Virus record (IMG/VR): IMGVR_UViG_3300016667_000367
Location: 1-64,000 of that record
Source: a virus
Strand: one strand, 5' to 3'
Length of the DNA: 64,000 bases
The notes beneath the pieces are model-generated. The model did not search any database and had not been told where the DNA came from. It saw only the letters and a list, made by a program, of their open reading frames with translations. Position numbers and translations under genes: made by a program. Within the stretch, counting starts at the first letter, position 1. Every line of letters starts with the position of its first letter. This document shows, one piece after another, positions 3,815 to 23,246 of the stretch.

Positions 3815-4315
3815 TTAATCAAATACGCAGTACTTTGACAAAATCTTAGCAAACCTCAACTTTAACTTCATGTACTCCCTCTTAGCTACTACAATATCCT
3901 CGCAGAGCATTGTACGAAGCCTTCCGTCTTCCTTCCACTGCAGCACATAGCAATACACATTACTACCGTGAGGTTTCATCTGCAATGCACCAGAAAGGTT
4001 CCTATGAGCTTCCTTAACCGTCTTAAGTACTTCCCTTGGAACTATCTGCAAGTTTACTAGCCTAAAGTCCTCGTAGTCAAGATTCTTATGAAGAACAACC
4101 TTATCATCAGGAACGGCAATATCGTTACCAATCTCAGCAGCAATCCTGTTAGCCTTCAGCTTGAACTTCTTACCCTTCCTGAAGAATGTAATGTAACCAT
4201 CTTCATCAGGGAATATCTGTCTCATGCTATCCAAGCAGTCCTTATCTTTAAGTAAAAAGAAAGTACCATCATGCAGGTTGTACTGAATGTAATCACGATA
4301 GGTAGTATGCTGCAT
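3815..4315 (-). CDS. hypothetical protein (166 aa)
   Basis: ORF track. Confidence 0.5.
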   Translation of the reverse strand: MQHTTYRDYIQYNLHDGTFFLLKDKDCLDSMRQIFPDEDGYITFFRKGKKFKLKANRIAAEIGNDIAVPDDKVVLHKNLDYEDFRLVNLQIVPREVLKTVKEAHRNLSGALQMKPHGSNVYCYVLQWKEDGRLRTMLCEDIVVAKREYMKLKLRFAKILSKYCVFD

Positions 4316-4390
4316 ATAAATCCTTAAAAATTAAAAGTATGTTATATGATAATTATGATGCTGTCAAGAGGGTTTAGGAAATATCTTTGT

Positions 4391-4430
4391 TTACTCTTGC
4401 TATGCTGTACTTACTCGTGCTATACTTGCA
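4391..4430 (+). promoter_or_regulatory. divergent-promoter region: two tandem 20-bp direct repeats containing a TTGCTA-18-TATACT sigma70-like element ahead of the plus-strand early block
   Basis: ttactcttgctatgctgtac / ttactcgtgctatacttgca read directly. Confidence 0.3.
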
Positions 4431-4454
4431 CTATCAACAATATGAAAGGGTTAT

Positions 4455-4658
4455 ATGTTTAAAGTTAAGTATGACAAAGACAAGGCAATCTTCCTGCGAA
4501 AGATCGGATGGGAATACAGTGATATTGCTGAGTTTCTTCAGTGCAGTGAGTCATGGTGCAAGCTGAATCTCAAAGGAGTTGAGAAGGATAAAGAACTTAT
4601 GCATAAGGCAGCGGTTATTGCTCGTTTGTATATTCAGCAAGTTAAGGAAGAAGTATGA
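4455..4658 (+). CDS. hypothetical protein (67 aa)
   Basis: ORF track; ATGA overlap with next gene. Confidence 0.45.
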   Translation: MFKVKYDKDKAIFLRKIGWEYSDIAEFLQCSESWCKLNLKGVEKDKELMHKAAVIARLYIQQVKEEV

Positions 4659-5917
4659 CTAAAACAGTAGAAGTTCTTGATGCCCTAATGGGTTCAGGTA
4701 AGACTCATGCAATCATTGAATACATGAGTAAGCACCAAGATAGACCTTGGTTGTATATCAGCCCTATGCTTGAAGAGGTTGATTCCAGAGTTCCTGAGAG
4801 GGCAGACGAACTTGGTCTTGAGTTATTCATTCCATATGCTGATGATTTGCACACAAAGGCAGAGACTTGTCTGAAAGCACTGAGTAAAGGAATGAATGTG
4901 TGCTGTACTCACAATCTGATGTATAAGTTCACCAAGCACCACCTTGCAGAGATCAAGAAGCACGGCTATAACGTAGTATCAGATGAAGAACTCAATTTGA
5001 TAAATGGTTATGGCACAAAAAAGGAAGACATTGAATTTCTAATCAATAATGAAATTATCAAGATTGATGAAGAATCGGGTCAGGTTATATTTTTAGATGA
5101 GGATATGTCACTAGAGGCTAAGTATGGTGACATCAAAGCTAAATCCGATCTTGGTATGCTTTATGCAGCAAAAAGAAGCACTAGGTTCATGGTTGTTCAG
5201 CTATCCCCTAAGATTATTGACAATTCGGAAAGATTCATTCTTCTGACATATAACTACAAGGGTAGTTTAATGCAGACCTTCATGACTATGCATGGATATG
5301 AGTACAAAGAATTTAACGAGGTAACTCTATACAAGACAAACAAGGAAATCATAAAGGACTTGCTTGAAAGGATTGAGTTTATTGAGACACCATCAGTAAA
5401 GAAAATACAAAATAGCTTTACACTGAGTAAGTCTTGGTGGGTTAATGCTTCTGCAAAAGAAAGAGAATCCGTAGCTAAGTGCATCAGGTCTTGTATGCTT
5501 AAAGCTGGACTAAAGAAGGGTGAAATATTTTATACAGTACCAAAAGATTACTCGACAAAAGCAAAAGGATTCAATACGCAGTGGATAGGCAGTCAACCTG
5601 AGATTGGACAAGATGGTGAACCAATAGAAAGCACAAGAAGTTTTATTGCTTGTAATGCAAGAAGTACTAACGTGTATGCTGAGAAGAAATTAGCAGTACA
5701 TGCTTACAATATGTATCCAAATCAGGCTGTAAAGGCTTTCATACAGGGTCAGGGGTATGTTTGTGATGATGAAGTGTTTGCACTAAACATGATGCTACAA
5801 TGGTTGTTCAGAGGATGCATACGTAAGAAGGATGGGAGCAAGATGAAAGTAGCTATACTAAGCAAGAGAATGAGTGTACTATTCAAGGAGTGGTTGATGA
5901 AGAGTACAAAGTCGTGA
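4655..5917 (+). CDS. P-loop NTPase (N-terminal Walker A GSGKTH); Zot/RepA-like, possible replication-initiation or DNA-transaction ATPase
   Basis: MTKTVEVLDALMGSGKTHAIIEY at the N-terminus. Confidence 0.45.
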   Translation: MTKTVEVLDALMGSGKTHAIIEYMSKHQDRPWLYISPMLEEVDSRVPERADELGLELFIPYADDLHTKAETCLKALSKGMNVCCTHNLMYKFTKHHLAEIKKHGYNVVSDEELNLINGYGTKKEDIEFLINNEIIKIDEESGQVIFLDEDMSLEAKYGDIKAKSDLGMLYAAKRSTRFMVVQLSPKIIDNSERFILLTYNYKGSLMQTFMTMHGYEYKEFNEVTLYKTNKEIIKDLLERIEFIETPSVKKIQNSFTLSKSWWVNASAKERESVAKCIRSCMLKAGLKKGEIFYTVPKDYSTKAKGFNTQWIGSQPEIGQDGEPIESTRSFIACNARSTNVYAEKKLAVHAYNMYPNQAVKAFIQGQGYVCDDEVFALNMMLQWLFRGCIRKKDGSKMKVAILSKRMSVLFKEWLMKSTKS

Positions 5918-6268
5918 AGGCTGGTTCTTCATGTCACCATCAATTTCATGTGTCGTAAACAGTGTTTTTTGAGGCCAATCCTTAAGAACCAAGAGAGAAA
6001 TTAAACAAAGAAGAAACTGACGTTATTTGCACCTCGCATTGCTTGTATAGTATATTACTGCAAAAAGGTGCAAATAAAATATCTCAACAAAAGGAACCAT
6101 CATGCCAATCCAAGACCTTATCCAAATTCTTAAAACATACCTCCGAGAAGAAGGTAATCTTGATGTAGTAATCAAGGATTCAAAATATCTTGTGTACTTC
6201 CCTATTGAAGTTCATCTTCAGGAGGATAGGGTTGGTAAATTCTTAATCATTGAGTAAAAAGTAAATCC

Positions 6269-6484
6269 ATGAAACTACGATATAAACGCAAGCAGTCAAA
6301 TAGATGCAAGCACTTCAGAAGTCTGCGTGCTACTATTAGGGGTATATTTAAAAGAAACGTAAAGTACAGGCAGTACATGAGGGAAGACGGTAGTATTGGT
6401 GCATTACCTGAATACAGATGGACTGAAGAAGATAAAAAGTACTCATTTGCTGTGATAAATAAGATGAAGAAGGTTAGTAAGTGA
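6269..6484 (+). CDS. hypothetical basic protein (71 aa)
   Basis: ORF track. Confidence 0.4.
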   Translation: MKLRYKRKQSNRCKHFRSLRATIRGIFKRNVKYRQYMREDGSIGALPEYRWTEEDKKYSFAVINKMKKVSK

Positions 6485-6558
6485 ATTATTGAATTATTAA
6501 ATTACTGACTCATTGACATACAGCATGATCGTGCTACACTACTTTTAACTAAACAACT

Positions 6559-6831
6559 TTGAAAGGAAATGATATGCTAGAAAAGCAAGTAGAAGCTTAC
6601 TCACTATTTGAATTCTGTCAGAAGGTTCAGGAGAATATCCTAAATGGCTTTAAGTTTGACTTTGAGAGTAATGCTAGGTTCCCTACAGCATTTGGTACTA
6701 TGCTTGTAGCAGGTATGGTGAAGGATGGTGTACCTGATGTTAAGGTTGAGGTAGTATCCGAGGATAAGGAAGAACCTAGCGTAAAATCAGTAAGTACCTC
6801 TCGTAAATCACGGAAAGTTGAAGTTGAGTAA
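6559..6831 (+). CDS. hypothetical protein (90 aa)
   Basis: ORF track. Confidence 0.45.
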   Translation: MKGNDMLEKQVEAYSLFEFCQKVQENILNGFKFDFESNARFPTAFGTMLVAGMVKDGVPDVKVEVVSEDKEEPSVKSVSTSRKSRKVEVE

Positions 6832-6902
6832 TTAACAAGCATAATGATGGTGCATAACTAGCACCCTGCTATTTTATAAATATCCTTAAGGTAAGGAGTT
6901 GT

Positions 6903-7655
6903 ATGAAGCGTCCTGCAAAAATGTCTCGTAGAGAAAAGTCACAACAAGGTCATGATGGAGCTATTGCTAATCGCAAGGCGCACAACTGGTCCGAGCAATA
7001 TGGCATTAACCAAATTAAATTAACAGTCAGTCAAACTGAACTTATGCACAAGATTCAGAATAACACACTGACTTTTGTTGATTCCGTGGCGGGTAGTGGT
7101 AAATCATTAACTGCACTTTATACTTTTGTAAAGGAGTATTTGAGGGACAATACAAAACAACTCATTATTATTCGTACACCAGTTGAAGCCGGTATGGATA
7201 AGATTGGTGCACTTCCTAATGAGTACGAAGCAAAAATTGAACCGCACTTTGCAAGCACTAGGAAGATTCTTGAGGAACTTCTGAGCAGGGGTAAAGTAGA
7301 AACTGACCTAGGACATAGGATTCACTTCAAGATTCCAAACTTTGTTCTTGGTGCAACATTTGATAACTCCTTAATTCTTTTGGATGAAATGCAACAGGTT
7401 CCGCCAAATATCCTAAAGCTACTTCTTGAGCGTATTGGTGTTGATAGTAAGTGCGTTGTCATGGGCGATAGTACTCAACTATATACTGGCACCGACAGCA
7501 AGCGTAATGGTCTTAAGGATGCATTGGGTCGATTCCTAGATACTGATGGTGAGCCAAAATACAACGATGTAGCATTTCATAAATTTGGTATTCAAGATGT
7601 AATGCGTAGCGAAATCGTAAAAACTGTAATCACGGCTTATACTGGTCTTGTATAA
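6903..7655 (+). CDS. phoH: PhoH-like ATPase
   Basis: Walker A VAGSGKS, LLDEMQQ and VVMGDSTQ motifs as in PhoH family. Confidence 0.65.
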   Translation: MKRPAKMSRREKSQQGHDGAIANRKAHNWSEQYGINQIKLTVSQTELMHKIQNNTLTFVDSVAGSGKSLTALYTFVKEYLRDNTKQLIIIRTPVEAGMDKIGALPNEYEAKIEPHFASTRKILEELLSRGKVETDLGHRIHFKIPNFVLGATFDNSLILLDEMQQVPPNILKLLLERIGVDSKCVVMGDSTQLYTGTDSKRNGLKDALGRFLDTDGEPKYNDVAFHKFGIQDVMRSEIVKTVITAYTGLV

Positions 7656-7668
7656 ACAAGAAAATCCG

Positions 7669-7697
7669 TTGACAGTAGGACAGGACTGTAGTAACAT
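7669..7697 (+). promoter_or_regulatory. sigma70-type promoter TTGACA-17-TAACAT for the downstream homing endonuclease
   Basis: ttgacagtaggacaggactgtagtaacat read directly. Confidence 0.45.
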
Positions 7698-7725
7698 ACA
7701 GTCTTGTTCAATCTTAAAGGTACTT

Positions 7726-8514
7726 ATGACCTCAAAAGTAAATATTCTTGGTAAAGTATTTCAATCCAAAAACTACGGAGAGTACATTGTTACTGAGTAT
7801 AAAAGTTGGAGAGAAGTTCACATAATGTTTACAGCAACAGGATTTAAAACTGTAGCTCAATTAAAAGAGATAAGAACCGGAATGGTTAAAGATTATCTCC
7901 TACCTACTATTTGTGGCGTTGGATATCTTGGTATCGGTGATTATAAGTGCCAGCGTATAAACGAATATGGTAAACGCGCAAATACGCCGGAGTATGAAGT
8001 ATGGAATGGAATGTTGAAACGCTGCTATAACAAGGAGTGGAGAGATAAGCAGGGTAGGCAATCATACGAAGGCGTGACCGTTTGTATTGAGTGGCATAAC
8101 TTCCAAAATTTTGCAAAGTGGTTTAACGAAAATAAACCAGAAGGTGATTACGCACTAGACAAGGACTTAAAAATTATTGGAAATAGGCAATACAGTCCTG
8201 AATCATGCACATTTCTACCAGTAAGAGTGGACAGTCTGTTTACTGGAACTATGGATGATCGTGATCTACCAAGAGGTGTTCATTTCTGTAAAAATAAAAA
8301 GAAATACATCGTGCAACTACACAAGGGTGATGTGACTGCAAAAGGTAATCCAAAACAAACATATCTTGGTGCATACACAAGTAAAGATGATGCAATTCGT
8401 GCTTATCGAGAAGCAAAGATTGAGGTGGTTAGTAAAGTTGCAGAGGAATATAAGGATGTTCTTGATCCAGTTGTATATCAGAACTTAAAAACACGGGTTT
8501 TAGAATTTATTTAA
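7726..8514 (+). CDS. free-standing homing endonuclease of the HNH-AP2 type (DKD..GN..YSPEsC nuclease core plus C-terminal AP2 domain), paralog of 30886..32181
   Basis: WNGMLKRCYN...W.NFQNFAKW...LDKDLKIIGNRQYSPESCTF; AP2-like LPRGVHFCKNKKKYIVQ...YLGAYTSKDDAIRAY; start moved to MTSKVN ATG with RBS. Confidence 0.6.
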   Translation: MTSKVNILGKVFQSKNYGEYIVTEYKSWREVHIMFTATGFKTVAQLKEIRTGMVKDYLLPTICGVGYLGIGDYKCQRINEYGKRANTPEYEVWNGMLKRCYNKEWRDKQGRQSYEGVTVCIEWHNFQNFAKWFNENKPEGDYALDKDLKIIGNRQYSPESCTFLPVRVDSLFTGTMDDRDLPRGVHFCKNKKKYIVQLHKGDVTAKGNPKQTYLGAYTSKDDAIRAYREAKIEVVSKVAEEYKDVLDPVVYQNLKTRVLEFI

Positions 8515-8547
8515 GAAACGAATTAACGAATTAGTAAAGGAGCCCTC

Positions 8548-9264
8548 ATGAAAGCACTAAACCAAAATATCAACAAGTACAAGAACTTCACTAGGATCAA
8601 TCTATCGGATGATGATGATGAAGATAAGGAACTTCAGCATATTCATCTACCTATGTATGAAAGTACTGCTACATCACGCTGCATTAAGATTTACCTTGAT
8701 GAAAATATCAAGCAACCTTCTTACTACAGGAATATGGTTCATGCTCTTGATAATCTTACCGAAGATGACATGATGCATATCAGCATCAATAGTTATGGTG
8801 GTCAACTTGATAGTGCTATTGCTATTATTGGTGCTATGCAACGAACTGACGCTCATGTTCACTGCAGTATTGATGGTATGGCTGCTAGTGCTGCTTCACT
8901 GATTGCTCTAGCATCTCCTTCACTAAGTATTGCTCCTATGGCTAGTATGATGATTCATGCTGCTACATTTGGAACCTTCGGTACTCAGAGTTCTGTTGTA
9001 TCTCATGCTTCATTCATTGATAAAAAGGTGAAAGATATCATGCAAGAAATCTACAAGGACTTTCTGAGCCAGAAGGAACTTGATGAGGTATTCATGGGTG
9101 CTGAGATTTGGCTATCATCCGATCAAATCTTTGAACGCCTTGAGAAACGCTCCGAGATTCAGGAGAAGCGATACCAGAAGGAACAACGAGAAATTGCTAA
9201 GGCTATGAAGGTTCCTCGGAGTAAGGTTAAGAAGGTGGATGAAGAGGTTTATGATATCTCTTAA
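8548..9264 (+). CDS. ClpP-family serine protease-like protein (S14 fold; GMAASAAS Ser and MMIHAA His)
   Basis: ISINSYGGQLDSAIAIIGAMQ...IDGMAASAASLIALAS...MMIHAA resembles ClpP / ClpP-like prohead proteases. Confidence 0.55.
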   Translation: MKALNQNINKYKNFTRINLSDDDDEDKELQHIHLPMYESTATSRCIKIYLDENIKQPSYYRNMVHALDNLTEDDMMHISINSYGGQLDSAIAIIGAMQRTDAHVHCSIDGMAASAASLIALASPSLSIAPMASMMIHAATFGTFGTQSSVVSHASFIDKKVKDIMQEIYKDFLSQKELDEVFMGAEIWLSSDQIFERLEKRSEIQEKRYQKEQREIAKAMKVPRSKVKKVDEEVYDIS

Positions 9265-9330
9265 AATTTATATTTAACGCTGCTTGAATTATCAGTTTCT
9301 ATCGCTAAATTTGCTATTAAAATATCACTA

Positions 9331-9368
9331 GAACCCCTTGGGAGTAATCCCTTGGGGTTTTTCTTTTG
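9331..9368 (+). terminator. rho-independent terminator ending the plus-strand early block
   Basis: ccccttgggagtaatcccttgggg followed by tttttctttt. Confidence 0.45.
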
Positions 9369-9652
9369 TTCTGATTTAACAGCAAAATATGCGATAAATT
9401 CATGCTTACTGCCGCTTTATTCATGCATCTCTTTCTCAAATATCAATTTGAGTTAAGTTTTGATGTCTTCTTGATACCTTTATGATCCAGCAGGATTTGT
9501 TAGTTGTTTGTTAGGTACTTGCTGGGATTGTGAAATTGCTGCAGGATGGAATGTGGGTTTAATCAACCGACCCTACCACCCCATCAATTTTGCTGATTTT
9601 TCTAAAATATCATGGCGCCGGATCGCATAGGACATGCAGCAGGATCGCGCAT

Positions 9653-9684
9653 CTAGTTCCGATAATTCACATTTTCGGAACTAG
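9653..9684. other. perfect 10-bp-stem hairpin (ctagttccga-N12-tcggaactag) inside a GC-rich ORF-free segment
   Basis: read directly. Confidence 0.4.
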
Positions 9685-10004
9685 GGTTTATCCTGCACCA
9701 GGGATTATCGCCGGGCATGCTTCGGGGTTTTCTGGTGGATACCCTATAGGCCCAGCAAGGCGCATAGAACGGCTTCAGGCGGGTTTTCTTGTGCAAGCCT
9801 AGGCTACCCTACTATGCGACATGGAAAATTGATTCTAGGCGCTTTTGGTGCATTCTAGCATCATCCACATTTTACGCGGTGCATGGTGGATGCTTAAAAG
9901 TAAACCCATGAGTAAATTCAAGATCCCCGCCGTACTCGCCAGCACCCCAAAAGATAAACCAAAGTACAAATGAGAATGACTCGCATTTCACCCTTCAGGC
10001 AAAA

Positions 10005-10033
10005 GAAAAACCCCAGGGATAAGCCACGGGGTT
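10005..10033. terminator. bidirectional terminator-like hairpin aaaaacccc-N13-ggggttt
   Basis: read directly. Confidence 0.35.
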
Positions 10034-10168
10034 TCATTGCTCAATCAATCTCTTTGCTTAATCCAATGAATCACGCAAGCTAGCCCGTAACATACGCCAG
10101 CACAAGCCCAGCAATACAGAAGAAAACCAGAGTACAGTTTAACTAGGGAAAACAGAAGCGGCACGTTA

Positions 10169-10414
10169 TTAGCTCCAATCCAGCAGGTTTTTATATGCTG
10201 GACTCATTGTCCCGTTGGTATATGCGGCATATGAGTGCCAGTTCCCATGATCCGGAAAATCCTCTATTTCATAGCCAATGTATCCGGCGCGTTCATTAAT
10301 TACGACAATTTCATGCGCTTTTTTAAACGCTCTTTTCCAATCTAATTTGTCTCCTGATTGATAGTAAAAAACCCTGATTTGTTTCCCATTGTAAAAGACT
10401 GCAAAACATCCCAT
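10169..10414 (-). CDS. hypothetical protein (81 aa) in GC-rich island
   Basis: ORF track; last gene of the island operon. Confidence 0.5.
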   Translation of the reverse strand: MGCFAVFYNGKQIRVFYYQSGDKLDWKRAFKKAHEIVVINERAGYIGYEIEDFPDHGNWHSYAAYTNGTMSPAYKNLLDWS

Positions 10415-10419
10415 TTTAA

Positions 10420-11181
10420 TTACCCCTTAAAGTTAGACTTAGCTGAACCATGCGATACAATTGCAATGGATTTTGCTTTGATACTGGAGCCGCTGCAAAG
10501 CTTGCAAGCCTCGCAGGTTACACGGCGCCCGGCCTCCTCACTAGCTGGGCATAGGATTTCGTTTTTCAACACGGAGCTTGCCCCCTTGTCCTTCCATTCT
10601 TGCACTGGGATAACCCGAAAAGTCCGGTAGCCGTTATTGTGCAGGGTTTGCGCCTGCCTTGCATTATCTGCACTAATCATAAGCTTTGCGGTGTCAATAC
10701 CCGGATATTCCCCTAACTGGTGCGTGTATCCGGTATGTCCCAAAGCTTCGGACAATAAAGCCTCGAATCTTGCACTATAAATAGCCGCCGGGTCGCCATA
10801 GGTGCCGAGGCGAATCATACGCCCCCTGCCGATTTCACGCGCCTGGTCATCGGTCAGGATTGGATATTTGCCCGCCAGGAATGCCCTATAAACTGCGCCG
10901 GCTCCCTGGCCAATGGTGACATAACACGATCGACCATCCGCTAACCCTTTTGTCTTTTCGGGGTTTGCCTTGCCGCGATGCACGCAACGACCACAGATTG
11001 AATAATCCCGGTCTGTCCGATTAGCCGTTATAGGGTCCATGTCAGCCCGCAGGATGTAGGTTTGAACCATGTTCCCGGTCTTGCTGTTAGTGCTTTTGGC
11101 GATTGCGATGACGACAATAGGCGCTCCATCAATACGCGACGGACCCTGATACAGGATGCCGGATTGGATTTTCTTTTTCAT
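10420..11181 (-). CDS. Cys-rich hypothetical protein (253 aa; CGRC ... CEACKLC)
   Basis: ORF track; GC about 52% versus about 38% in flanks; preceded by the conserved leader motif. Confidence 0.55.
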   Translation of the reverse strand: MKKKIQSGILYQGPSRIDGAPIVVIAIAKSTNSKTGNMVQTYILRADMDPITANRTDRDYSICGRCVHRGKANPEKTKGLADGRSCYVTIGQGAGAVYRAFLAGKYPILTDDQAREIGRGRMIRLGTYGDPAAIYSARFEALLSEALGHTGYTHQLGEYPGIDTAKLMISADNARQAQTLHNNGYRTFRVIPVQEWKDKGASSVLKNEILCPASEEAGRRVTCEACKLCSGSSIKAKSIAIVSHGSAKSNFKG

Positions 11182-11190
11182 AATTTACCT

Positions 11191-11220
11191 TTTGGTTTTG
11201 CTGGGCAATATCGCCCCCAA
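11191..11220 (-). promoter_or_regulatory. conserved leader element copy A (GGGGGCGATATTGCCC stem-loop plus AAAACCAAAAGG RBS) just 5' of the ATG
   Basis: aligns with copies at 11624..11652 and 12033..12056. Confidence 0.4.
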
Positions 11221-11261
11221 ATGACCCTATTTAGTAAGATCATTTGAGAGAATACTACATA

Positions 11262-11612
11262 TTAGAATTCCTGATAAACAAAGACATTGGCGCCCTGTTT
11301 ATTAATGTACTCACCTATTATCACTGTATTCTCTTCGAGAAAATCCCTTGCGATATCTGCCAAGTCATCATTTGAATAATCCGATGAATCCTGCAATTTG
11401 TATTGCACAAAGATATCCGCGCAATCATTTTCCACGTAATTGCAGCAATACCCTACGACGTCCAACTCTTCATTGTTTCCTGTCTCTTCGCTCAGGTTTT
11501 CGAGGTAATCAAAAATGATCCTCTGAGCCTTTTTAGAGAAATGATCCGCACGACCCATGTCTTGAAATGCTCGGGCGAACTCATAAAATCCGATAGTTTG
11601 AACGATTGCCAT
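11262..11612 (-). CDS. highly acidic 116-aa protein, candidate DNA-mimic / antirestriction protein (Ocr/ArdA-like; assignment tentative)
   Basis: D/E-rich translation (e.g. DLADIARDFLEENTVIIGEY); GC-rich island context. Confidence 0.5.
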   Translation of the reverse strand: MAIVQTIGFYEFARAFQDMGRADHFSKKAQRIIFDYLENLSEETGNNEELDVVGYCCNYVENDCADIFVQYKLQDSSDYSNDDLADIARDFLEENTVIIGEYINKQGANVFVYQEF

Positions 11613-11623
11613 AATTTCACCTT

Positions 11624-11652
11624 TTGGTTTATCGGGCAGGATTGCCCCCTAT
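11624..11652 (-). promoter_or_regulatory. conserved leader element copy B (GGGGGCAATCCTGCCC stem-loop plus RBS)
   Basis: read directly. Confidence 0.4.
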
Positions 11653-11693
11653 ATGGCACTATTTTCTAATGCCATATAAGAAAATCCTATTTA

Positions 11694-11927
11694 TTATTTG
11701 CTGCCGTACAGTTTTGCGAAATCTCGGATATGTCTATTATTTTCAAAGTCAATCTGTTTTCCAAACCTCCCATTCTGCCAGCGAATCGCAATCGTCCCTG
11801 CTTTTGTGATTCCAAGAAACTGTCCCCGAGACCCAGTTTTACGGCAAGTCAACCATTGCCCAACCTGCAGATCGTACCGCTGCAGATTGCCCAGATCGAT
11901 TTTGATCGTTGCAATATAACGCGCCAT
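11694..11927 (-). CDS. hypothetical protein (77 aa)
   Basis: ORF track; RBS AAGGGGGTGAA before ATG. Confidence 0.5.
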   Translation of the reverse strand: MARYIATIKIDLGNLQRYDLQVGQWLTCRKTGSRGQFLGITKAGTIAIRWQNGRFGKQIDFENNRHIRDFAKLYGSK

Positions 11928-11938
11928 GGTTCACCCCC

Positions 11939-12022
11939 TTATGCGAAAGAAAAAGCCAAGATAAGGCCGAAGACTGCGCCCATGATGGCTGCGCAAAGAT
12001 AGTCAAATGCTGTAGGTTTCAT
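11939..12022 (-). CDS. 27-aa hydrophobic peptide MKPTAFDYLCAAIMGAVFGLILAFSFA (single TM helix)
   Basis: hand-translated; its own copy of the leader motif upstream; stop 1 nt before the next gene's RBS. Confidence 0.35.
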   Translation of the reverse strand: MKPTAFDYLCAAIMGAVFGLILAFSFA

Positions 12023-12032
12023 TGTTTCGCCT

Positions 12033-12056
12033 TTGATTTATCGGGAATATTCCCGG
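12033..12056 (-). promoter_or_regulatory. conserved leader element copy C (CCGGGAATATTCCCG stem-loop plus RBS)
   Basis: read directly. Confidence 0.35.
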
Positions 12057-12651
12057 ACAATCGCCTATTTTTCTAAGCGATTCTCAGAGAATCCTGAGCT
12101 GGTCTCAGGCCAGCGCTTATGCGCCGGGTTTGTGTTGGTGAAAATCAAGTCTTTAGATTTTTAACGATCCACCCCGTACTAGGGGCGATACCCTAGGGGC
12201 TGGGGCTTGCTGCTGTTCGCTGCTGCCTTGGACTCAATTATGCACTAGTTCGATGCCTTGTCTCGGTTTCTCTTAACTATTTTGATTGAAATTTACTATC
12301 GATGCCATAGGTTTTCCCTATCTGTTGGAGCGTCGATTTATACATATGACGCGCCCGCGATATAGCATAAAAAGAAAAACCTAGTAAATCGAAGGGTTAT
12401 TATATAAACCTAAGTCTAAACGAGAATCATTCTCATTTAGCTTTTCTGCAATCCTCCATATCAACCTCTTTACTGAAAACCACCATCAGCAATAAACGCT
12501 ACCTTGAAAAACTCCGAGGGGTCGTGAGTTTTTTAAGAAATTTTAACTTCAACCCCTAGCGGATTTTTGATTTCAATTTGGATTTCCATATTCAGGAAAT
12601 TTCAAATGCTCATGAGTTTTTGAAGATGAAAATTAAATGAGAAAAATAAAA

Positions 12652-12692
12652 ACCACCGAGGATAATCCAAGGTGGTCTTCTTTTTATTTATT
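12652..12692. terminator. bidirectional rho-independent terminator between island and early minus block
   Basis: accaccgagg-ataatcc-aaggtggt flanked by A-run and T-run. Confidence 0.45.
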
Positions 12693-12703
12693 CATCTTTT
12701 TAT

Positions 12704-13027
12704 TTAATCTTCACCATACATATCTTCATCATCCTTGTCTTCCTTCTTCCTGAAAGGTCTTACGGAATGCAATGGACAAACCTCAACCCTGCAATCACTG
12801 ATATCCTCCTTACTGAAGTTACAGCAAGTCAAGCACTTAGCCTTGATGGCTTTACTCAAGCTCTTACCTACAAAGGCATCAGCGATAAGCCTCTTGAGTT
12901 TATCAGGGGAGTACTCAACATAAGCCCTTTGCTTATCAGTAATGCTATCAAGAGCAGTGTTAAGTTTTGCTAATGAAATTTCCTTGTTTTTTGACCTATC
13001 GAGGTTCAGTAAGGGGTTGATAGCCAT
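12704..13027 (-). CDS. hypothetical protein with C-terminal Cys cluster (107 aa)
   Basis: ORF track. Confidence 0.5.
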   Translation of the reverse strand: MAINPLLNLDRSKNKEISLAKLNTALDSITDKQRAYVEYSPDKLKRLIADAFVGKSLSKAIKAKCLTCCNFSKEDISDCRVEVCPLHSVRPFRKKEDKDDEDMYGED

Positions 13028-13116
13028 CTCTTTAGTTCCTTCATTTACGTAATACGGAAGATGCTAGTAAAAATGCTGCTGAGGATTTTACAGCAGCATC
13101 TTAACTTGTTTTCTTC

Positions 13117-13317
13117 CTAGCCTCTACGAATCTCGAAAAGACCTGCATTACTCCTCAATTCATTACCATTCTCTCCAGTAAACAGTGTGTCATTCTCTTC
13201 AATCCAGTACTTAGCCTGAGCAATGCTTGAGAACTTGTTAGCTACCTTACCGGAGCTTTTGAAGACTACGTTGTACATCATACGTTGCTTGACGGTGTTG
13301 CCTTGGTTGTTTTTCAT
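13117..13317 (-). CDS. hypothetical protein (66 aa)
   Basis: ORF track. Confidence 0.45.
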   Translation of the reverse strand: MKNNQGNTVKQRMMYNVVFKSSGKVANKFSSIAQAKYWIEENDTLFTGENGNELRSNAGLFEIRRG

Positions 13318-13356
13318 GATTGCTTTCTGTTTAGTTGAATTAACTGACTTATCTTA

Positions 13357-13557
13357 TTATCTCTGATAATTAACAGGACGTTCGTACTTACCTTGCTCGT
13401 TTCGGTAGATACTAATTAACATTCCGTACTTACTTCCATCATCCCAAGTCCAGCTACGGGTTTCTCCGTAGTTGATAGGATGATAATGAATCTCCCACGC
13501 ATCAAGAAGATTCTCTGATTTCAGAGCTTCGTTAAGAGTGTCAAGCCAGTTCTTCAT
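13357..13557 (-). CDS. hypothetical protein (66 aa)
   Basis: ORF track; preceded by 28-bp promoter-like motif. Confidence 0.45.
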   Translation of the reverse strand: MKNWLDTLNEALKSENLLDAWEIHYHPINYGETRSWTWDDGSKYGMLISIYRNEQGKYERPVNYQR

Positions 13558-13576
13558 GTTTACATCTCGTTGCTAT

Positions 13577-13604
13577 GACTTAAGTATATCAGAAATCCTT
13601 AAGT
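13577..13604 (-). promoter_or_regulatory. copy 1 of recurring intergenic motif (mRNA sense CTTAAGGATTTCTGATATACTTAAGTCA; extended -10 TGnTATACT between palindromic CTTAAG arms)
   Basis: four near-identical copies at 13577, 14069, 17230, 17718, each just upstream of a minus-strand start. Confidence 0.4.
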
Positions 13605-13617
13605 AAAAACCACCTTG

Positions 13618-13851
13618 CTAGTACTTTACTTGCTGGACTTGAGGATTCTTGTAACCTATCTCAAGCAGATGCTTCTCAGCGTACTTCCTGACCTTGTTCT
13701 GCTGTCTAGTGGTTAGCATGAAGTAGAACTCACTAGTACTACGCCTAGAACCCGTAGGAGTCTCATAGGTTAGTACTACCTCATAGCAATGCACAAAGCC
13801 ACCTGAAGGAGATCCGTAGGAGATTTTCATCATTACTCTCCTTGATTGCAA
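13618..13851 (-). CDS. hypothetical protein (77 aa)
   Basis: ORF track. Confidence 0.45.
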   Translation of the reverse strand: MQSRRVMMKISYGSPSGGFVHCYEVVLTYETPTGSRRSTSEFYFMLTTRQQNKVRKYAEKHLLEIGYKNPQVQQVKY

Positions 13852-14048
13852 GTAAACACCATACCTTCTTTACTCTCAAGATTGAAGATCTTACCAGCCT
13901 TACCACGGCGACCTTCAGGCTTCTGCTCAGTACCAGCTACCTCGATGATACCGTAGCGATGCAAGATGGTGAAAGCTACAGCATCCATTAGGGTTCCGTT
14001 AAGAGTGACTTGCTTTGCCATGAGTTGAGCTACAGTACCGATCAGCAT
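13833..14048 (-). CDS. hypothetical protein (71 aa)
   Basis: ORF track. Confidence 0.45.
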   Translation of the reverse strand: MLIGTVAQLMAKQVTLNGTLMDAVAFTILHRYGIIEVAGTEQKPEGRRGKAGKIFNLESKEGMVFTCNQGE

Positions 14049-14068
14049 CTTAGTTCCTTGGTTTGCTA

Positions 14069-14095
14069 TGACTTAAGTATAACATAGTTCTTAAC
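14069..14095 (-). promoter_or_regulatory. copy 2 of the recurring 28-bp motif (variant)
   Basis: tgacttaagtataacatagttcttaac. Confidence 0.35.
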
Positions 14096-14138
14096 AGAAA
14101 ACAGAAACCACCCAAGATTTCTCAAGGGTGGTCCATGC

Positions 14139-14273
14139 TTACTTCTCAAACCTAGGTAGCATAGGATCGATGCTATCCTTCATACCGATAAAAGCCTTGC
14201 AGATGAAGTAATGCATTTCAATCAAAGCAGTGATAGCAACAAGAGGTGCAATCAGGATATTCTTCAGCTTCAT
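14139..14273 (-). CDS. small hydrophobic protein (44 aa; MKLKNILIAP...), paralog of 16391..16552
   Basis: hand-translated; shared NILIAP..I..YY/HYFIC.KF motif. Confidence 0.4.
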   Translation of the reverse strand: MKLKNILIAPLVAITALIEMHYFICKAFIGMKDSIDPMLPRFEK

Positions 14274-14306
14274 TTCCCAGCTTTCTTTTCAATGCGTTCA
14301 AGTTTA

Positions 14307-14483
14307 TTAGCAGCGGATAGAGAACCCTACGTTGTCCAGCAGTACTCCGTTGATCTGGAGTTGTTGAGACATTAACTCCGATGCAGTACCGACGTAGGAG
14401 GTGGTGTTAGGAGTAAGGAGTTCGCTAGCAGTACCTGTGTAAGTAGTCATGTTAGAAATACCCATGTTGAAATTCAGAGCCAT
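14307..14483 (-). CDS. small protein (58 aa; MALNFNMGISNMTTYTGTASELL...); out-of-frame tail ANKLERIEKKA matches C-terminus of 16552..16776
   Basis: hand-translated codon by codon. Confidence 0.35.
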   Translation of the reverse strand: MALNFNMGISNMTTYTGTASELLTPNTTSYVGTASELMSQQLQINGVLLDNVGFSIRC

Positions 14484-14624
14484 CTGTTTTTAATCTATTT
14501 ACGTGACTGATGTAATCTTCGTACTCGTTTTCAGAATACTTAACAACATCGATGACTTTGTTGTGGTGATTAAAGAAGATTATGTAGTAAGCCATGTTGT
14601 GTTACCAGTCCGTGTTTCGTTAAC

Positions 14625-15005
14625 TTATTCTACACCAAGATTCTCTAGCTCAGCTATGCTTTGCTTAATTTTATTCAAGTCCTTACCTTGCGCTGCTTGC
14701 TGGAGGTTTACCCAAGCACTACCTAGCTTTTGCTGCCTGTACTGCTCGGCATCTCGCTTCAGCTTATCACCAAGAGTCTCTACAAAACTCCTACTGTCAT
14801 AGCTCACTCCTAGCTCTTTCTTGGTCTTAACGCTGAAGCTACGCTGTACTCCGTCTTCTCGTTCTAGCACTAGCTTTACCTTGTCTAGTTTGATGACCTT
14901 GTAGACACCTTCGCTGGAAGTACTCCAACTACCGTTACGTGCTACAGAGACTTCTTGACCGATGCTGAGGTTTGAGTAATCGATGATCATTGGTTTACCT
15001 ATCAT
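14625..15005 (-). CDS. hypothetical protein (126 aa)
   Basis: ORF track. Confidence 0.5.
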   Translation of the reverse strand: MIGKPMIIDYSNLSIGQEVSVARNGSWSTSSEGVYKVIKLDKVKLVLEREDGVQRSFSVKTKKELGVSYDSRSFVETLGDKLKRDAEQYRQQKLGSAWVNLQQAAQGKDLNKIKQSIAELENLGVE

Positions 15006-15346
15006 TTTGAAGTAAAAGCTGCGTACAGAACACGGAGGATACTAAACAAAAGACCTGTCAGCATTGTCTGAGCAGGGAAGTTAGTGAAAACAGTCAGAAC
15101 TACGGCTACTACAAATGACGCAAGAAAACAAATAGCAATCTTTAGTGAAGTGCTAGAGCCAGATGCAATGTAGATATTACTAGCTACTTCAGAGAATTTG
15201 TCGGTTAGTTTAGACATTGTTGTGTTCCTTAGAACTTGTTGCGTTATAGCTAGTATAAGCGAGGAAACCAAGGTTCTACAAGGACTACAGTTAATAAAAT
15301 CTATGAAGAACCGAGGAACGATAGTAGTTCTTGTAGCCAGAAACAA
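15002..15346 (-). CDS. hypothetical membrane protein (114 aa, several TM segments)
   Basis: ORF track; hydrophobic stretches. Confidence 0.5.
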   Translation of the reverse strand: MFLATRTTIVPRFFIDFINCSPCRTLVSSLILAITQQVLRNTTMSKLTDKFSEVASNIYIASGSSTSLKIAICFLASFVVAVVLTVFTNFPAQTMLTGLLFSILRVLYAAFTSK

Positions 15347-15383
15347 AAAACCTCCCTAGCTTTCACCAGAGAGGTCTTGAGTC

Positions 15384-16196
15384 TTATTTACCTAGGTTCC
15401 CAAGCATCGTGATATTGCTAGGTACAACAATAGTATTCACCTTACCTTGCTTGATACCTTCAGAGATGTTCAGTGCAGCCTGAGCCTGCATATAAGCAAT
15501 ACTCTGAGTGCTGTTAGCAGCCAGAGCAGCCATACGCTCTGATTCTTTCTTAGCAATTAGGACCTCATTCTCCTTGATCTTCAGTTCGTTCTGTGATCGA
15601 ACATAATCAGTAGCTGACTTCAGAATCTCTGCATTAGGTTTTACGTTAGTAATCTGTACTACTGTCAGAGAAATACTAGTATCTAGTTTTTCTTCCTTTA
15701 GTTGTTCAGCAACGTAGTTCTGAATCTCTTGCTCTAGTTTAGCTCGGTTATCAGCTACTTCTAGTGCGTTGTAAACCCGTACTGCTTTGTAAGCAGAGTT
15801 GTTGACCAAGGTCTGCATGTATTTGTGCATCAGCAGTACGTTCTTATCCTCGTCTACAGTATGGAAGCTCTTTGACTTAGTGCTGTAGAGTTCTGCAACC
15901 GAACTAGGGTTAATCCCGTAGACTACTGTAATGTCGAAATCAGCTAGTGCTGAGTTATCTTTTGTCATTGGAGTTTTGTTCTCTAGGTTAACTGCAATGT
16001 CTTTCACAGGAAACTCCAGAACAGAACCTACGATGGTCTGGTTCCAAGAGCCCGGCATCAGTTCATTACCCTCGATTTGCTTTGAAGCATTAAGACGTAC
16101 ACCTACTTCTCCGGTTTCAATCCGAGTACAACCACTAGCTAGTAGCGAAGCTACAACGATAGCAGAGACAGTAATGGACTTCTTGATGTTTAGCAT
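15384..16196 (-). CDS. lipoprotein with SPFH (band-7/stomatin/HflKC-like) domain
   Basis: signal peptide plus lipobox LLASGC; long coiled region EILKSATDYVRSQNELKIKENEVLIAKKESERMAALAA typical of SPFH. Confidence 0.5.
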   Translation of the reverse strand: MLNIKKSITVSAIVVASLLASGCTRIETGEVGVRLNASKQIEGNELMPGSWNQTIVGSVLEFPVKDIAVNLENKTPMTKDNSALADFDITVVYGINPSSVAELYSTKSKSFHTVDEDKNVLLMHKYMQTLVNNSAYKAVRVYNALEVADNRAKLEQEIQNYVAEQLKEEKLDTSISLTVVQITNVKPNAEILKSATDYVRSQNELKIKENEVLIAKKESERMAALAANSTQSIAYMQAQAALNISEGIKQGKVNTIVVPSNITMLGNLGK

Positions 16197-16210
16197 TTGA
16201 TTTCCTTTAG

Positions 16211-16387
16211 TTAGAACAGAAACGTGATTACAGACAGAATACCTACAGCAATAGCTGCATACAGAGAAGACTTAGCAAACAGCTTGAAAGCCTGTAACTT
16301 TTCTTGCTTTGACATTGTGCTTAAGATACTTGATCCAGCAGCAATAACAAAAGTAAGAACAATAAAGACTAAGATCATTAGTAGCAT
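16211..16387 (-). CDS. small membrane protein (58 aa, two TM segments)
   Basis: hand-translated MLLMILVFIVLTFVIAAGSS... Confidence 0.4.
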   Translation of the reverse strand: MLLMILVFIVLTFVIAAGSSILSTMSKQEKLQAFKLFAKSSLYAAIAVGILSVITFLF

Positions 16388-16390
16388 GGT

Positions 16391-16552
16391 TTACTTCTTC
16401 ACAGCTTCAAACTCAGGAAGCATATACTTGTGGTTATCTGTAAGTACTACAAACTTCTCACAGATGTAGTAGTTAATCATTACAGGTACTCGGATTAGCA
16501 GCACTGCAGGAGCAATCAGGATGTTGCGGATAACGGTCTTGATGTTTTTCAT
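16391..16552 (-). CDS. small protein (53 aa; MKNIKTVIRNILIAPAVLL...), paralog of 14139..14273
   Basis: hand-translated. Confidence 0.4.
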   Translation of the reverse strand: MKNIKTVIRNILIAPAVLLIRVPVMINYYICEKFVVLTDNHKYMLPEFEAVKK

Positions 16553-16776
16553 TACTTAGCCTTCTTTTCAATTCGTTCAAGTTTGTTAGCTGCACTAAGG
16601 AGAGCAAATGCTAACTTCTTAGCTCTCTTGCTATCAAGATAGGTTGTAGTCACATCACCACTAAGCTCTACTTCAACTTCCTTTAGGGCTTTATTCTGCA
16701 GAAGAACACCGAAGTCCTTGCAAGCTAGAGTCCTGAGTTGGATGAAGTTATAGCTACCAGTTACTTGCTTTTTCAT
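16552..16776 (-). CDS. hypothetical protein (74 aa)
   Basis: ORF track. Confidence 0.45.
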   Translation of the reverse strand: MKKQVTGSYNFIQLRTLACKDFGVLLQNKALKEVEVELSGDVTTTYLDSKRAKKLAFALLSAANKLERIEKKAK

Positions 16777-16778
16777 GA

Positions 16779-16961
16779 TCAGATGCTTTCAAAGAACTTG
16801 ACAATGTACTTACTAACTTCCTTTTTACTAGCTTCAATGCAGTAATAACCAGAAGTTGACTTGATATAGACTTTACTCTTACCTTGAGGAAGTTCGTCAG
16901 TAATCTGCTGAACTTGATTGGAAGTAAGAAGTTCTTTTCTAGTAAGTTTGTGAGAATTCAT
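16779..16961 (-). CDS. hypothetical protein (60 aa)
   Basis: ORF track. Confidence 0.4.
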   Translation of the reverse strand: MNSHKLTRKELLTSNQVQQITDELPQGKSKVYIKSTSGYYCIEASKKEVSKYIVKFFESI

Positions 16962-17212
16962 TGCAGCACCTCGATTACATTGCAGTTATCAACAGCAAGG
17001 CAGGAGTCCTTGAAGTAAGCTATACCTGCTCGGAAAGGAAGGATAAGATCTTCTTCGATCTGAATCCTGTACTCCGTCTTCCAACCGTACTTAGTCCTCT
17101 TCTCAATAATAGTGCCTTGGATCTGGTACTCACCAAGGTAAAGAGCCTTGACTCTTTGACCTTCTTCAAGACGGATACTTTGCAGTTCGTTGAGCTTGCT
17201 GATGGAGTTCAT
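16958..17212 (-). CDS. hypothetical protein (start moved to MNSISK ATG; the upstream extension overlaps the promoter motif)
   Basis: ORF track 16958..17335, trimmed. Confidence 0.4.
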   Translation of the reverse strand: MNSISKLNELQSIRLEEGQRVKALYLGEYQIQGTIIEKRTKYGWKTEYRIQIEEDLILPFRAGIAYFKDSCLAVDNCNVIEVLQ

Positions 17213-17229
17213 TTTTGACCTCTGTTTGA

Positions 17230-17256
17230 ATGACTTAAGTATATCAGAAATTCTTA
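17230..17256 (-). promoter_or_regulatory. copy 3 of the recurring 28-bp motif
   Basis: tgacttaagtatatcagaaattcttaa. Confidence 0.4.
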
Positions 17257-17690
17257 AAAGAAATCTCAGGATGCCACCAAATAGCATGAACAGGCTTTGA
17301 CTTTGATTGGTCAAAAGTATCCACAATGCTGCCATCTATCAGTGAAGTTGCATGACCCTTGACATACACAACAAACCTACCCTTAGTAAGCTCGGAGACA
17401 ACTTTACCTAGACTCTTGCGCTCTTCCAGTTTTGTATTCCAGTACTTCGAAGTGTGATAATTCTCATATCCACTCTTAAAGATTACTGGCATAAAACCAA
17501 GTTCTTTCATTGCAGCAAATGTAGTAGGCATGAAAGTACCTTTGCCATGCTTCCTGCCATGCTTGTCAAGCAGAGCATGGATTTCATCATAGCTCTTACC
17601 AGTAACATTAGTCAAAGCACGAACTACGCAGTCATTGCTTTCACCAACCTTAGTTGCACCGCGAGAAACACAAGGGATTTTACGACTCAT
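17244..17690 (-). CDS. hypothetical protein (148 aa) with Cys...His...Asp arrangement; possible papain-like/CHAP-like peptidase (speculative)
   Basis: ESNDCVVRAL ... KGHATSLIDGSIVD. Confidence 0.4.
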   Translation of the reverse strand: MSRKIPCVSRGATKVGESNDCVVRALTNVTGKSYDEIHALLDKHGRKHGKGTFMPTTFAAMKELGFMPVIFKSGYENYHTSKYWNTKLEERKSLGKVVSELTKGRFVVYVKGHATSLIDGSIVDTFDQSKSKPVHAIWWHPEISFKNF

Positions 17691-17717
17691 GATTTCAAAC
17701 CTCAGCTTGTTTGGAAT

Positions 17718-17745
17718 GACTTAAGTATAGCACAAATTCTTAAGC
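17718..17745 (-). promoter_or_regulatory. copy 4 of the recurring 28-bp motif
   Basis: tgacttaagtatagcacaaattcttaag. Confidence 0.4.
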
Positions 17746-18299
17746 CTTTGCGAAGAACTTATGCCCTCCGATCACAGCTACTTTTTTCATGTCCTTACTC
17801 CACCTAGCTGTGATGTTTGTCGTAGTGTACCAGAGTACATTGCTGCTGAGAACAGGTTTGAACCTACCTTGCAGCATCTTTTCAGCAATCTCTGAGATGC
17901 TTGCAACGACCTCTCGCTCAGAAGGCTTTGCAAGTTTCTCTGCATTGACAAGAGGTTTACCTTCTGCTATGAAGGAGAACTGCTTGTTTTGCTTAATAAT
18001 TTTGCAGTACGTAGCAGGATATGCTTCATGCTTCTTCCTGTTCTCTATGACTGAAGCTACTGCCTTGATACCATGAGAACCTTCACCTCTAGCTTCATGA
18101 TATAAGGCAGCAGTCAGGCAGGTTTTCTCATTCTGATAGTCCTTCTGCTTCTTGTACTCCTGAGCTAGACTGTATTTGTCATACCTAGCTGAGATCTCTT
18201 GACTGTCAGCAGGTAACGGTTGGTTAGCTGCAAATAGTAATAAAGCAGAAGCTACCAGAGACATGGTTTTAGTCCTTATCTTCCTGCTTGATTTCTTCA
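17740..18299 (-). CDS. secreted cell-wall hydrolase, SleB/Hydrolase_2-like
   Basis: signal peptide MKKSSRKIRTKTMSLVASALLLFAANQ; CLTAALYHEARGEG...AVASVIENR motif; start trimmed from 18435. Confidence 0.5.
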
Positions 18300-18512
18300 T
18301 CTTGATTCTCTTCTTGCTTCTTCTTACCGAAGATCCTATCCCAATTACTTGCGTAGGAATCATAGTCCGCGCTCTTACGTGGAGCATGACCTTTACCACC
18401 TCGATTCTGAAAACTTGTAATTGCTGCTGGATCAAAATCAGACATATTATACCTCCTTCATAAAGTTAAAAACCTCCAAGGTTTCCCAAGGAGGTTATAT
18501 TATATCATATTG

Positions 18513-18806: not shown

Positions 18807-18812
18807 GCATGA

Positions 18813-19181: not shown

Positions 19182-19182
19182 A

Positions 19183-19854: not shown

Positions 19855-19863
19855 GATTTCCTT

Positions 19864-21132: not shown

Positions 21133-21141
21133 GATAAATCC

Positions 21142-21971: not shown

Positions 21972-22012
21972 GATTTACCTTTGGTTGTTGTAAGTGAAGT
22001 ATAGCACAGGTT

Positions 22013-23234: not shown

Positions 23235-23246
23235 TGTGTGCTCCTG

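Follow-up and report, generated by a model that had tools for sequence, protein, structure and literature searches.

Here, we describe a small-gene region of an uncultured virulent phage with a genome of about 76 kb, studied in a stretch of 64,000 nucleotides (IMG/VR record IMGVR_UViG_3300016667_000367, positions 1 to 64,000; in the following, the window). The segment between positions 9270 and 12700, referred to as the island, is best read, with somewhat better than even confidence, as a terminator-isolated accessory operon in a hyperplastic, cassette-swapping slot where a rightward PhoH-(HNH)-ClpP block meets a leftward block. As judged from the arrangement of its genes and signals, it is probably a single minus-strand transcription unit. 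The most likely start of transcription is a conserved sigma70-like promoter at about 12237-12264; the transcript would include a leader of about 200 nt, span six cistrons and end at a terminator at 10036-10000. Promoter, leader, terminators and the transmembrane (TM) mini-ORFs (open reading frames) at both ends would form the inherited frame, and the genes of an acidic 116-aa protein and of an 81-aa protein, together with the subtype of a gene of the DUF7227 superfamily (253 aa in the window), would be the swapped parts. Repeated hairpin motifs at the gene junctions are likely sites of recombinational cassette exchange, and a role in mRNA processing or translation is also possible. Judging from the type of region, the gene products probably act in host takeover or counter-defence.

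Organization of the operon

The converging transcription blocks that had been noticed in a preliminary description of the island were confirmed. The rightward PhoH-(HNH)-ClpP block and the leftward block of small genes run towards each other at the island, and the cumulative GC skew has a local peak at about 9.6-10.2 kb, which tracks gene orientation; its global extremes are located at 24.2 and 44.8 kb. The four minus-strand ORFs and the 27-aa TM peptide are present as described. In minus-strand order, the cistrons code for 27 (TM), 77, 116 (acidic), 253, 81 and 39 (TM) aa and are followed by a terminator. The 77- and 116-aa genes are separated by 81 nt and the 116- and 253-aa genes by 80 nt, and the 81-aa gene starts 5 nt past the stop of the 253-aa gene.

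Both bracketing terminators proved to be real. The rightward block ends at an intrinsic terminator on the plus strand (9331..9366; terminator scan, -19.5 kcal/mol, z-score -3.5), which is followed by UUUUUCUUUU. The right edge of the island is the minus-strand terminator (12677-12645; -17.0 kcal/mol, z -4.9, with a U-run) of an upstream leftward 107-aa gene (12704-13027). The intrinsic terminator of the island operon itself (10036-10000, minus strand; -15.5 kcal/mol, z -3.0, with a U-run) lies within a stretch, 9370-10160, which had been taken for ORF-free, structured DNA. As this stretch also contains the 39-aa ORF (10045-10164), the true intergenic part is 9367-9999; the DNA between 9370 and 10000 is not unusually structured.

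A promoter scan identified a sigma70-like promoter, GAGACA-16-CATAAT, on the minus strand at 12264-12237. Between this promoter and the first cistron lies the leader of about 200 nt (12065..12264 including the promoter, minus strand). Alignment with the closest relative found, L043 (IMGVR_UViG_3300044209_000006, 71.5 kb), revealed that the -10 region with the transcript start (12222-12250) and a block at 12149-12170 are kept in both phages.

Comparison with related phages

L043 shares a ClpP with 81% identity with the window and has 70-83% identity on the DNA level in shared genes. Downstream of its ClpP gene, an inserted HNH endonuclease gene and a terminator are followed by a non-coding spacer of about 0.8 kb. 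Next in order are a minus-strand terminator, a 41-aa TM ORF and a canonical DUF7227 gene (230 aa, Pfam E=1.9e-81), which belongs to another subfamily than that of the window. Then follow a homologue of the 77-aa gene, small ORFs including one for a 28-aa TM peptide, and a leader/promoter region with blocks matching 12149-12360. The 116- and 81-aa genes were not found in L043.

A more distant clade of 78-82 kb, with ClpP proteins 56-59% identical and a Mu-like portal, keeps the synteny, with PhoH-ClpP convergent on the island. In this clade the 253-aa gene is variably present. The type found in the window is convergent on ClpP in L040 and L045 and also in the short contigs L048 and L051, and in these members it is accompanied by a small TM ORF, a terminator and about 0.5 kb of AT-rich spacer DNA. 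As in L043, the counterpart of the 10036-10000 terminator follows the small TM ORF in L040. The 253-aa gene is absent from L046, L047, L049 and L052, and the 77-aa family is kept in L046 and L047. Outside these groups, a homologue of the 116-aa protein is encoded directly upstream of a DUF7227 gene in the unrelated 73.6-kb contig L039. This Logan contig also carries genes for NAMPT, an NMNAT/Nudix fusion and NAD kinase (L039:1271-6145), a few kb upstream of the DUF7227-type gene; we take these to be a phage NAD-reconstitution gene set against NAD-depleting defences.

Further close relatives were searched for with two DNA-pattern scans of viral contigs, which returned the L043 contig only, and with a metagenome scan using ClpP, which returned only a clade with 56-63% identity. 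Since the relatives share a skeleton and differ in their genes, the slot and its skeleton appear to be inherited and the cassettes to vary. The small-gene content thus differs between related phages, and the mosaic character ascribed to the region was borne out.

Hairpin motifs at the gene junctions

A hairpin with a 5-bp stem and a 4-nt loop, a GATAA(A)C-type element and a Shine-Dalgarno (SD) sequence lie, in this order, directly ahead of each of the 27-, 116- and 253-aa genes. The junction upstream of the 253-aa gene (11182..11222, minus strand; defined by repeat, fold and alignment) consists of GGGCG-AUAU-UGCCC, AGCAAAACC and the SD sequence. Two hairpins were detected by inverted repeat and fold in the spacer between the 77- and 116-aa genes (11613..11693, minus strand), the second of which, GGGCA-AUCC-UGCCC, precedes GATAAACC and an SD sequence. 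Upstream of the 27-aa ORF (12023..12064, minus strand; repeats and fold), CGGGA-AUAU-UCCCG is followed by AUAAAUC and the SD sequence. The element is present in three copies in the window, all inside the island and nowhere else in the 64 kb, and in four copies in L043, where it is likewise restricted to the corresponding region. These seven copies use four stem sequences, all of which still pair; stems which vary and yet always pair argue that the hairpin itself is under selection. Such selection fits a role at the RNA level (processing, stability or translation) besides any role in recombination. As read from sequence and alignment, the 116-aa gene is an insertion relative to L043 which is flanked by two junction motifs, and the extra ORFs of L043 (46, 28 and 71 aa) likewise lie between junction motifs.

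In the hyperplastic regions of T4-type phages, cassette exchange and modular shuffling are mediated by small composite stem-loop motifs, the promoter-early stem-loops (PeSLs; PMC2839356, PMC4122927). Like these regions, the island consists of small variable genes without known function which are enclosed by conserved blocks, and a stem-loop motif recurs at its gene junctions; in the one pair of close relatives compared, insertions and deletions also appear to be bounded by the motif. The phage itself is not T4-like, with its genome of about 76 kb and relatives which have a Mu-like portal. Moreover, a PeSL contains an early promoter, whereas the junction described here consists of hairpin, GATAA(A)C element and SD sequence and is promoterless: between hairpin and start codon there are only about 24 nt (GATAAACC, SD sequence and spacer), and the promoter scan found no promoter-like site in this interval.

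The likeness of the hairpin and GATAAACC to the 3′-end of a type I-E repeat prompted a reading as a mimic of a CRISPR repeat, i.e. an RNA anti-CRISPR. It was rejected because seven copies use four stem sequences and no CRISPR-DR family of Rfam matched at E<=10; as the repeat of the host is not known, this rejection is not a strict one.

Base composition and the origin of the island

The island had been described as DNA with about 50% GC, and hence as acquired. The measured GC content is 43.8% (9270-12700), compared to 37.7% in the left flank (4000-9269) and 40.3% in both the right flank (12701-21500) and the whole window; with this value the island is only at the 93rd percentile among equal-sized (3.4-kb) windows. 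The 253-aa gene is the only GC-rich gene of the island (52%, and 55% at third codon positions, GC3, versus 27-41% GC3 in core genes); the 81- and 116-aa genes have about 40% GC. While the GC contrast was thus overstated, the k-mer comparison suggested in the same description did reveal an outlier: the tetranucleotide composition of 9250-12750 is atypical (z 3.4-3.7) and second only to that of 22000-24500.

This composition, the high GC3 of the 253-aa gene and the absence of the 116- and 81-aa genes from the closest relative would all be expected if the whole 3.4 kb were a recent foreign island (moron) from a GC-richer donor. We consider this possible, yet doubtful. At the same site, L043 and the distant relatives have the skeleton, the blocks of promoter and leader, the 77-aa family and a gene of the DUF7227 superfamily, and the GC content of the 81- and 116-aa genes is ordinary. 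The DUF7227 and 77-aa genes of L043 likewise exceed their own genome in GC content (44-45% versus 38%), so that the GC bias travels with these gene families. The proposed acquisition thus holds in part only.

A stronger compositional island was observed at 22000-24500, with 51-62% GC in 500-nt windows and a tetranucleotide z of up to 4.3. Its minus-strand ORFs have no PHROG match, and those for 179 aa (22455-22994) and 112 aa (23247-23585) share the C-terminal motif FARAIE(A/R)AHGI. The global minimum of the cumulative GC skew, at about 24.2 kb, is located at the edge of this island.

The DUF7227-type protein

The 253-aa protein (10420..11181, minus strand) is a Cys-rich member of the DUF7227 superfamily and a putative metal-binding enzyme. 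It matches phrog_2554 over residues 5-252 (E=2e-60) and thus belongs to this PHROG. More than 7,368 homologues were found at 50-62% identity, many of them on contigs of 73-82 kb, and a tblastn search detected homologues in 152 cultured phages, every one annotated as 'hypothetical protein'. The carriers include 65 phages of Mycobacterium, 29 of Klebsiella, 28 of Gordonia and 8 of Microcystis, as well as phages of the Roseobacter group and others. In cultured phages, genes of the DUF7227 and 116-aa types sit among arrays of small hypothetical genes. A clustering of the genes neighbouring DUF7227 genes (42 loci) was set aside as too noisy, due to overlapping spurious ORFs.

The family has a mean column identity of 67%, and all seven Cys residues of the protein, noted earlier as a Cys-rich composition, are invariant in it. 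The invariant residues comprise C63, C66, H68, C86, D130, H154, E208, C211, C223, C226 and C229. AlphaFold yielded a confident alpha/beta model with a pLDDT (predicted local distance difference test) of 86.7. The protein is strongly conserved and enzyme-like rather than a small inhibitor. It is most likely an enzyme that would hold metal via two Cys clusters, C63/C66/C86, perhaps with H68, and C211/C223/C226/C229.

Within the superfamily, the protein belongs to a divergent subfamily; the C-terminal third is its only part that aligns to the Pfam model. It shares with the DUF7227 family the C-terminal motifs GD, (H/K)TG(Y/F)TH, S(A/C)DN, CPA(S/T)...C..C and HG and, as read by eye, N(S/A)KTG and CY(V/A) in the N-terminal part. 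The first Cys cluster differs, being CxxCxH...C in the window protein and CPxxCx6C in the canonical protein of L043. At E<=1, the Pfam model matches 23 of 25 members of the window-type subfamily, with a best value of 2.3e-8. A comparison with radical-SAM enzymes (QueE, PFL-activating enzyme, lysine 2,3-aminomutase) revealed that their CX3CX2C motif on the loop after beta-1, or an accepted variant of it, is absent from the 253-aa protein, the invariant Cys residues of which are spaced C63-x2-C66-x19-C86; the Radical_SAM model of Pfam matched none of the 25 subfamily members.

Two elements were observed close to DUF7227-type genes on other contigs. On the 42-kb viral contig L032, such a gene is followed after about 40 nt by a type II hammerhead ribozyme (L032:6771-6835; RF02276, 47.2 bits versus a cut-off of 37). 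On the 79.9-kb relative L040, a Mom-family (PF25680) DNA-modification gene is located about 3 kb upstream (L040:2164-2754).

The acidic protein and the small ORFs

The 116-aa protein (11262..11612, minus strand) belongs to a large uncharacterised phage family. It is acidic, as had been described, with a pI of 4.06 and 23 D+E versus 8 K+R residues (net charge about -15). An exhaustive HMMER search returned 1,368 representative clusters at E<=1e-3; a word-indexed search returned the protein itself and one relative only. The family consensus is F..AF...GR..FS.E....LFDYLE......G...ELDV(I/V)ALCCEY.E. The protein has no Pfam match even at E<=10, no PHROG-annotated relative and no sequence or profile match in the PDB, and its confident predicted model has a fold without a match among solved structures.

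The 77-aa protein (11694..11927, minus strand) is basic (pI 10.5) and belongs to phrog_21585 (E=5.5e-10, besides a weak DUF4314 match), with distant relatives in Vequintavirinae. Homologues occupy the same slot in L043 (39% identity), L046 and L047, and L040, L041 and L042 have a weaker match (E=7.6e-5), located upstream of their DUF7227 gene. The 81-aa protein (10169..10414, minus strand) is an ORFan: a database search found the protein alone, with no match in cultured phages and no family match. PDB sequence matches of the 77- and 81-aa proteins (Kelch, designed TIM barrels) were discarded as composition or repeat artefacts without a significant stretch.

The first cistron (11939..12022, minus strand) codes for the hydrophobic 27-aa TM peptide, with a grand average of hydropathy (GRAVY) of 1.49. 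By eye, its 28-aa counterpart in L043 (MKYFDNPYIAGCIIGVVTITPWIVASLF) is located behind a similar hairpin-SD motif. The last cistron (10045..10164, minus strand) likewise codes for a hydrophobic TM peptide (39 aa, GRAVY 0.99), and counterparts directly before the terminator exist in L043 (41 aa) and L040. This likeness is one of position and composition only, since no significant sequence match to the L043 and L040 mini-ORFs was obtained. The 77- and 81-aa genes have no junction motif, a point taken up below.

A possible role in anti-defence

In the preliminary description, the island was read as an array of anti-defence cassettes, in which the 116-aa protein would be a DNA mimic or another inhibitor of defence, and the Cys-rich and small proteins would counteract systems such as restriction, CBASS or Thoeris. 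Variable small-gene regions are the typical site of counter-defence genes, and the 116-aa protein is strongly acidic and widespread in phages. Like the DNA-mimic anti-restriction proteins Ocr and ArdA, it is small, very acidic and encoded in a presumed early variable region. Phages use NAD-salvage genes against NAD-depleting defences, and in the distant contig L039 the DUF7227 gene and the 116-aa homologue lie a few kb from such genes.

The 116-aa protein nevertheless resembles no known DNA mimic: it matched neither the ArdA nor the Ocr profiles, and its predicted fold is not the elongated, DNA-like acidic one. The Cys-rich protein has the appearance of a conserved metalloenzyme. Searches of Pfam, PHROGs, NCBIfam and PDB sequences gave no ArdA, Ocr, Acr, anti-CBASS, anti-Thoeris or other named match, the island proteins showed no similarity to characterised anti-defence proteins (Acr, anti-CBASS, anti-Thoeris and others), and the models of PADLOC, which describe defence and not anti-defence systems, did not match them either. 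That no island protein matches a family of known function had been stated before and holds. Ordinary conserved phage genes and an identical gene content across relatives had been named as what would speak against the array; three of the four proteins do belong to widespread phage families, whereas gene content is not identical across the relatives. Taken as a whole, the proposed array appears unlikely to us. What makes an anti-defence role possible, and indeed plausible, is the type of region rather than any specific support.

Non-coding DNA of the island

The spacer between the convergent terminators (9367..9999, about 630 bp) is non-coding, with no ORF >70 aa. The two terminators share 19 nt in inverted orientation (9350-9368 and 10000-10018, 631 nt apart, 95% complementary), so that an inverted repeat frames the spacer. 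Blocks common to L043 are found for example at 9454-9481, 9527-9544, 9559-9577, 9600-9611 and 9878-9888. A second non-coding region (12265..12644) upstream of the promoter contains conserved blocks at 12286-12315 and 12346-12360 in the alignment with L043. Each region harbors one copy of an operator-like 21-bp palindrome, copy 1 (AAATGAGAATGACTCGCATTT) at 9968..9988, just outside the operon terminator, and copy 2 at 12418-12438, upstream of the promoter. The palindrome AAATGAGAATGATTCTCATTT occurs at exactly these two sites in 64 kb (0.01 expected), and the site at 12418-12438 folds at -12.3 kcal/mol (z -5.6). In L043, three diverged copies are arranged in tandem at 12764-12850, on the upstream side only.

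Structured DNA had been claimed for 12060-12650 as well, and here the claim stands: 12023-12700 is structured (fold z -5.5), owing to the terminators and palindromic hairpins. The spacer at 9370-10000 is not unusually structured (fold z -1.3 and -1.7). On neither strand did its consensus fold with L043 (about -31 kcal/mol for 623 columns) yield a convincing common RNA structure, and the strongest hairpin on the side of the window (9653-9684) is missing from L043. Searches of Rfam with the whole window, and at E<=10 with 9200-12800, returned only tRNAs outside the island and chance-level matches inside. A large structured RNA in 9370-10000 was rejected on the basis of the fold z-scores and the lack of a structure in common with L043.

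The upstream region of L043, which is homologous to that of the window, contains three 23-bp and three 29-bp tandem repeats. Part of it (L043:12490-12640) is origin-like, with the three 23-bp repeats (GTCTTATACAAGAGT...), a perfect DnaA box TGTGGATAA and a near-perfect one TGTTGATAA. The window has no tandem repeats, and the origin-like array of L043 has no match in it. DnaA boxes are not enriched (15 found versus 16.8 expected in the window), and a replication origin in the spacers of the window was rejected on these grounds and because the skew extreme is merely local.

That 9367-9999 and/or 12265-12644 might represent a phage non-coding RNA or a replication origin is suggested by several observations. 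A spacer of 0.5-0.8 kb between convergent terminators is kept in three lineages, short blocks are conserved despite the swapping of neighbouring genes, the homologous region of L043 has tandem repeats and the DnaA box, and the palindrome is present on both sides of the operon. With no Rfam match, no excess folding in the spacer, a weak consensus fold of which the strongest hairpin is not conserved, and the features of an origin lacking from the window itself, we regard either function as quite unlikely. The flanking non-coding DNA most likely contains DNA-level regulatory sites (the promoter and operator-like palindromes) and not structured RNA. It is highly improbable that the 2.4 kb between the palindromes (9988-12418) are a mobile unit moved by site-specific recombination: the palindrome does occur at only two sites, which bracket promoter, six cistrons and terminator, but neither a recombinase nor a transposase or integrase was found by Pfam and PHROG profile searches within or next to the segment, the copies of L043 are in tandem on one side, and the relatives differ by single cassettes and not by the whole unit.

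The phage and further features of the window

A JGI protein encoded on a contig of 75,944 bp shows 100% identity to the 253-aa protein, and a 76,055-bp ENA contig is 99.99% identical to the window over 20 kb. The window codes for primase/helicase, DNA polymerase, ribonucleotide reductase, tail proteins and tRNAs; ThyX and dCMP deaminase were called on the 99.99%-identical ENA contig. The DNA of the island had no match among 50,697 deposited phage records, in near or distant search modes.

Four clustered tRNA genes (Gly-TCC, Asn-GTT, Ser-TGA, Thr-TGT) are located at 2239-2677 and a lone tRNA-Arg (TCT) gene at 34978-35052; the more distant relative L040 has at least eight tRNAs. The 901-aa ribonucleotide reductase (42033-44738) is matched by the respective profiles at residues of about 26-372 and 600-901, and the roughly 230 unmatched residues in between may represent an inserted domain or an intein. 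HNH homing-endonuclease genes are found between PhoH and ClpP (7648-8514) and between primase/helicase and DNA polymerase (30886-32181), and in L043 after ClpP (8796-9464). The different placement of these genes in the window and L043 suggests active endonuclease mobility in the lineage.

Discussion

The reading of the island as an accessory operon in a cassette-swapping slot has to be weighed against a number of findings. The candidate promoter matches the consensus at 9 of 12 positions. Motif-bounded insertions and deletions come from a single phage pair, two of the cistrons (the 77- and 81-aa genes) have no such motif, and a junction without room for a promoter does not qualify as a true PeSL and could be just a translation or processing signal. 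The assignment of the 253-aa protein is affected by a Pfam DUF7227 (PF23872) score of 26.3 bits, slightly below the gathering cut-off of 27 (E=6.7e-6, residues 169-249 only), and by a modest hhalign result for the window subfamily against the canonical DUF7227 protein of L043 (probability 49%, E=1.7e-4, 132 columns). In addition, the short conserved blocks of the spacers are not accounted for by the operon model.

A bolder extension would be that the DUF7227-type protein is a new iron-sulphur enzyme, distantly radical-SAM-like, which, with the 77- and 116-aa proteins as recurrent partners, helps to evade host immunity by modifying a nucleic acid or nucleotide, and that the junctions are a new signal for cassette exchange or RNA processing outside the T4 group. 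We regard this combination as decidedly improbable.

As an accessory operon in a variable slot, the island is of an ordinary kind, a further example which will not surprise a phage genomicist. Its junctions provide a concrete and testable handle on cassette exchange in a phage group outside the T4 family, and the spacer held between convergent terminators in several lineages is an unexplained feature worth attention. The locus also holds two abundant protein families without known function which are worth biochemical study. The 116-aa protein defines a large family with a predicted fold matching nothing solved. The DUF7227 superfamily, present in mycobacteriophages and in phages of Gordonia and Klebsiella, is among the most abundant phage families without known function, and with seven invariant Cys residues and a confident model it is a tractable biochemical target.

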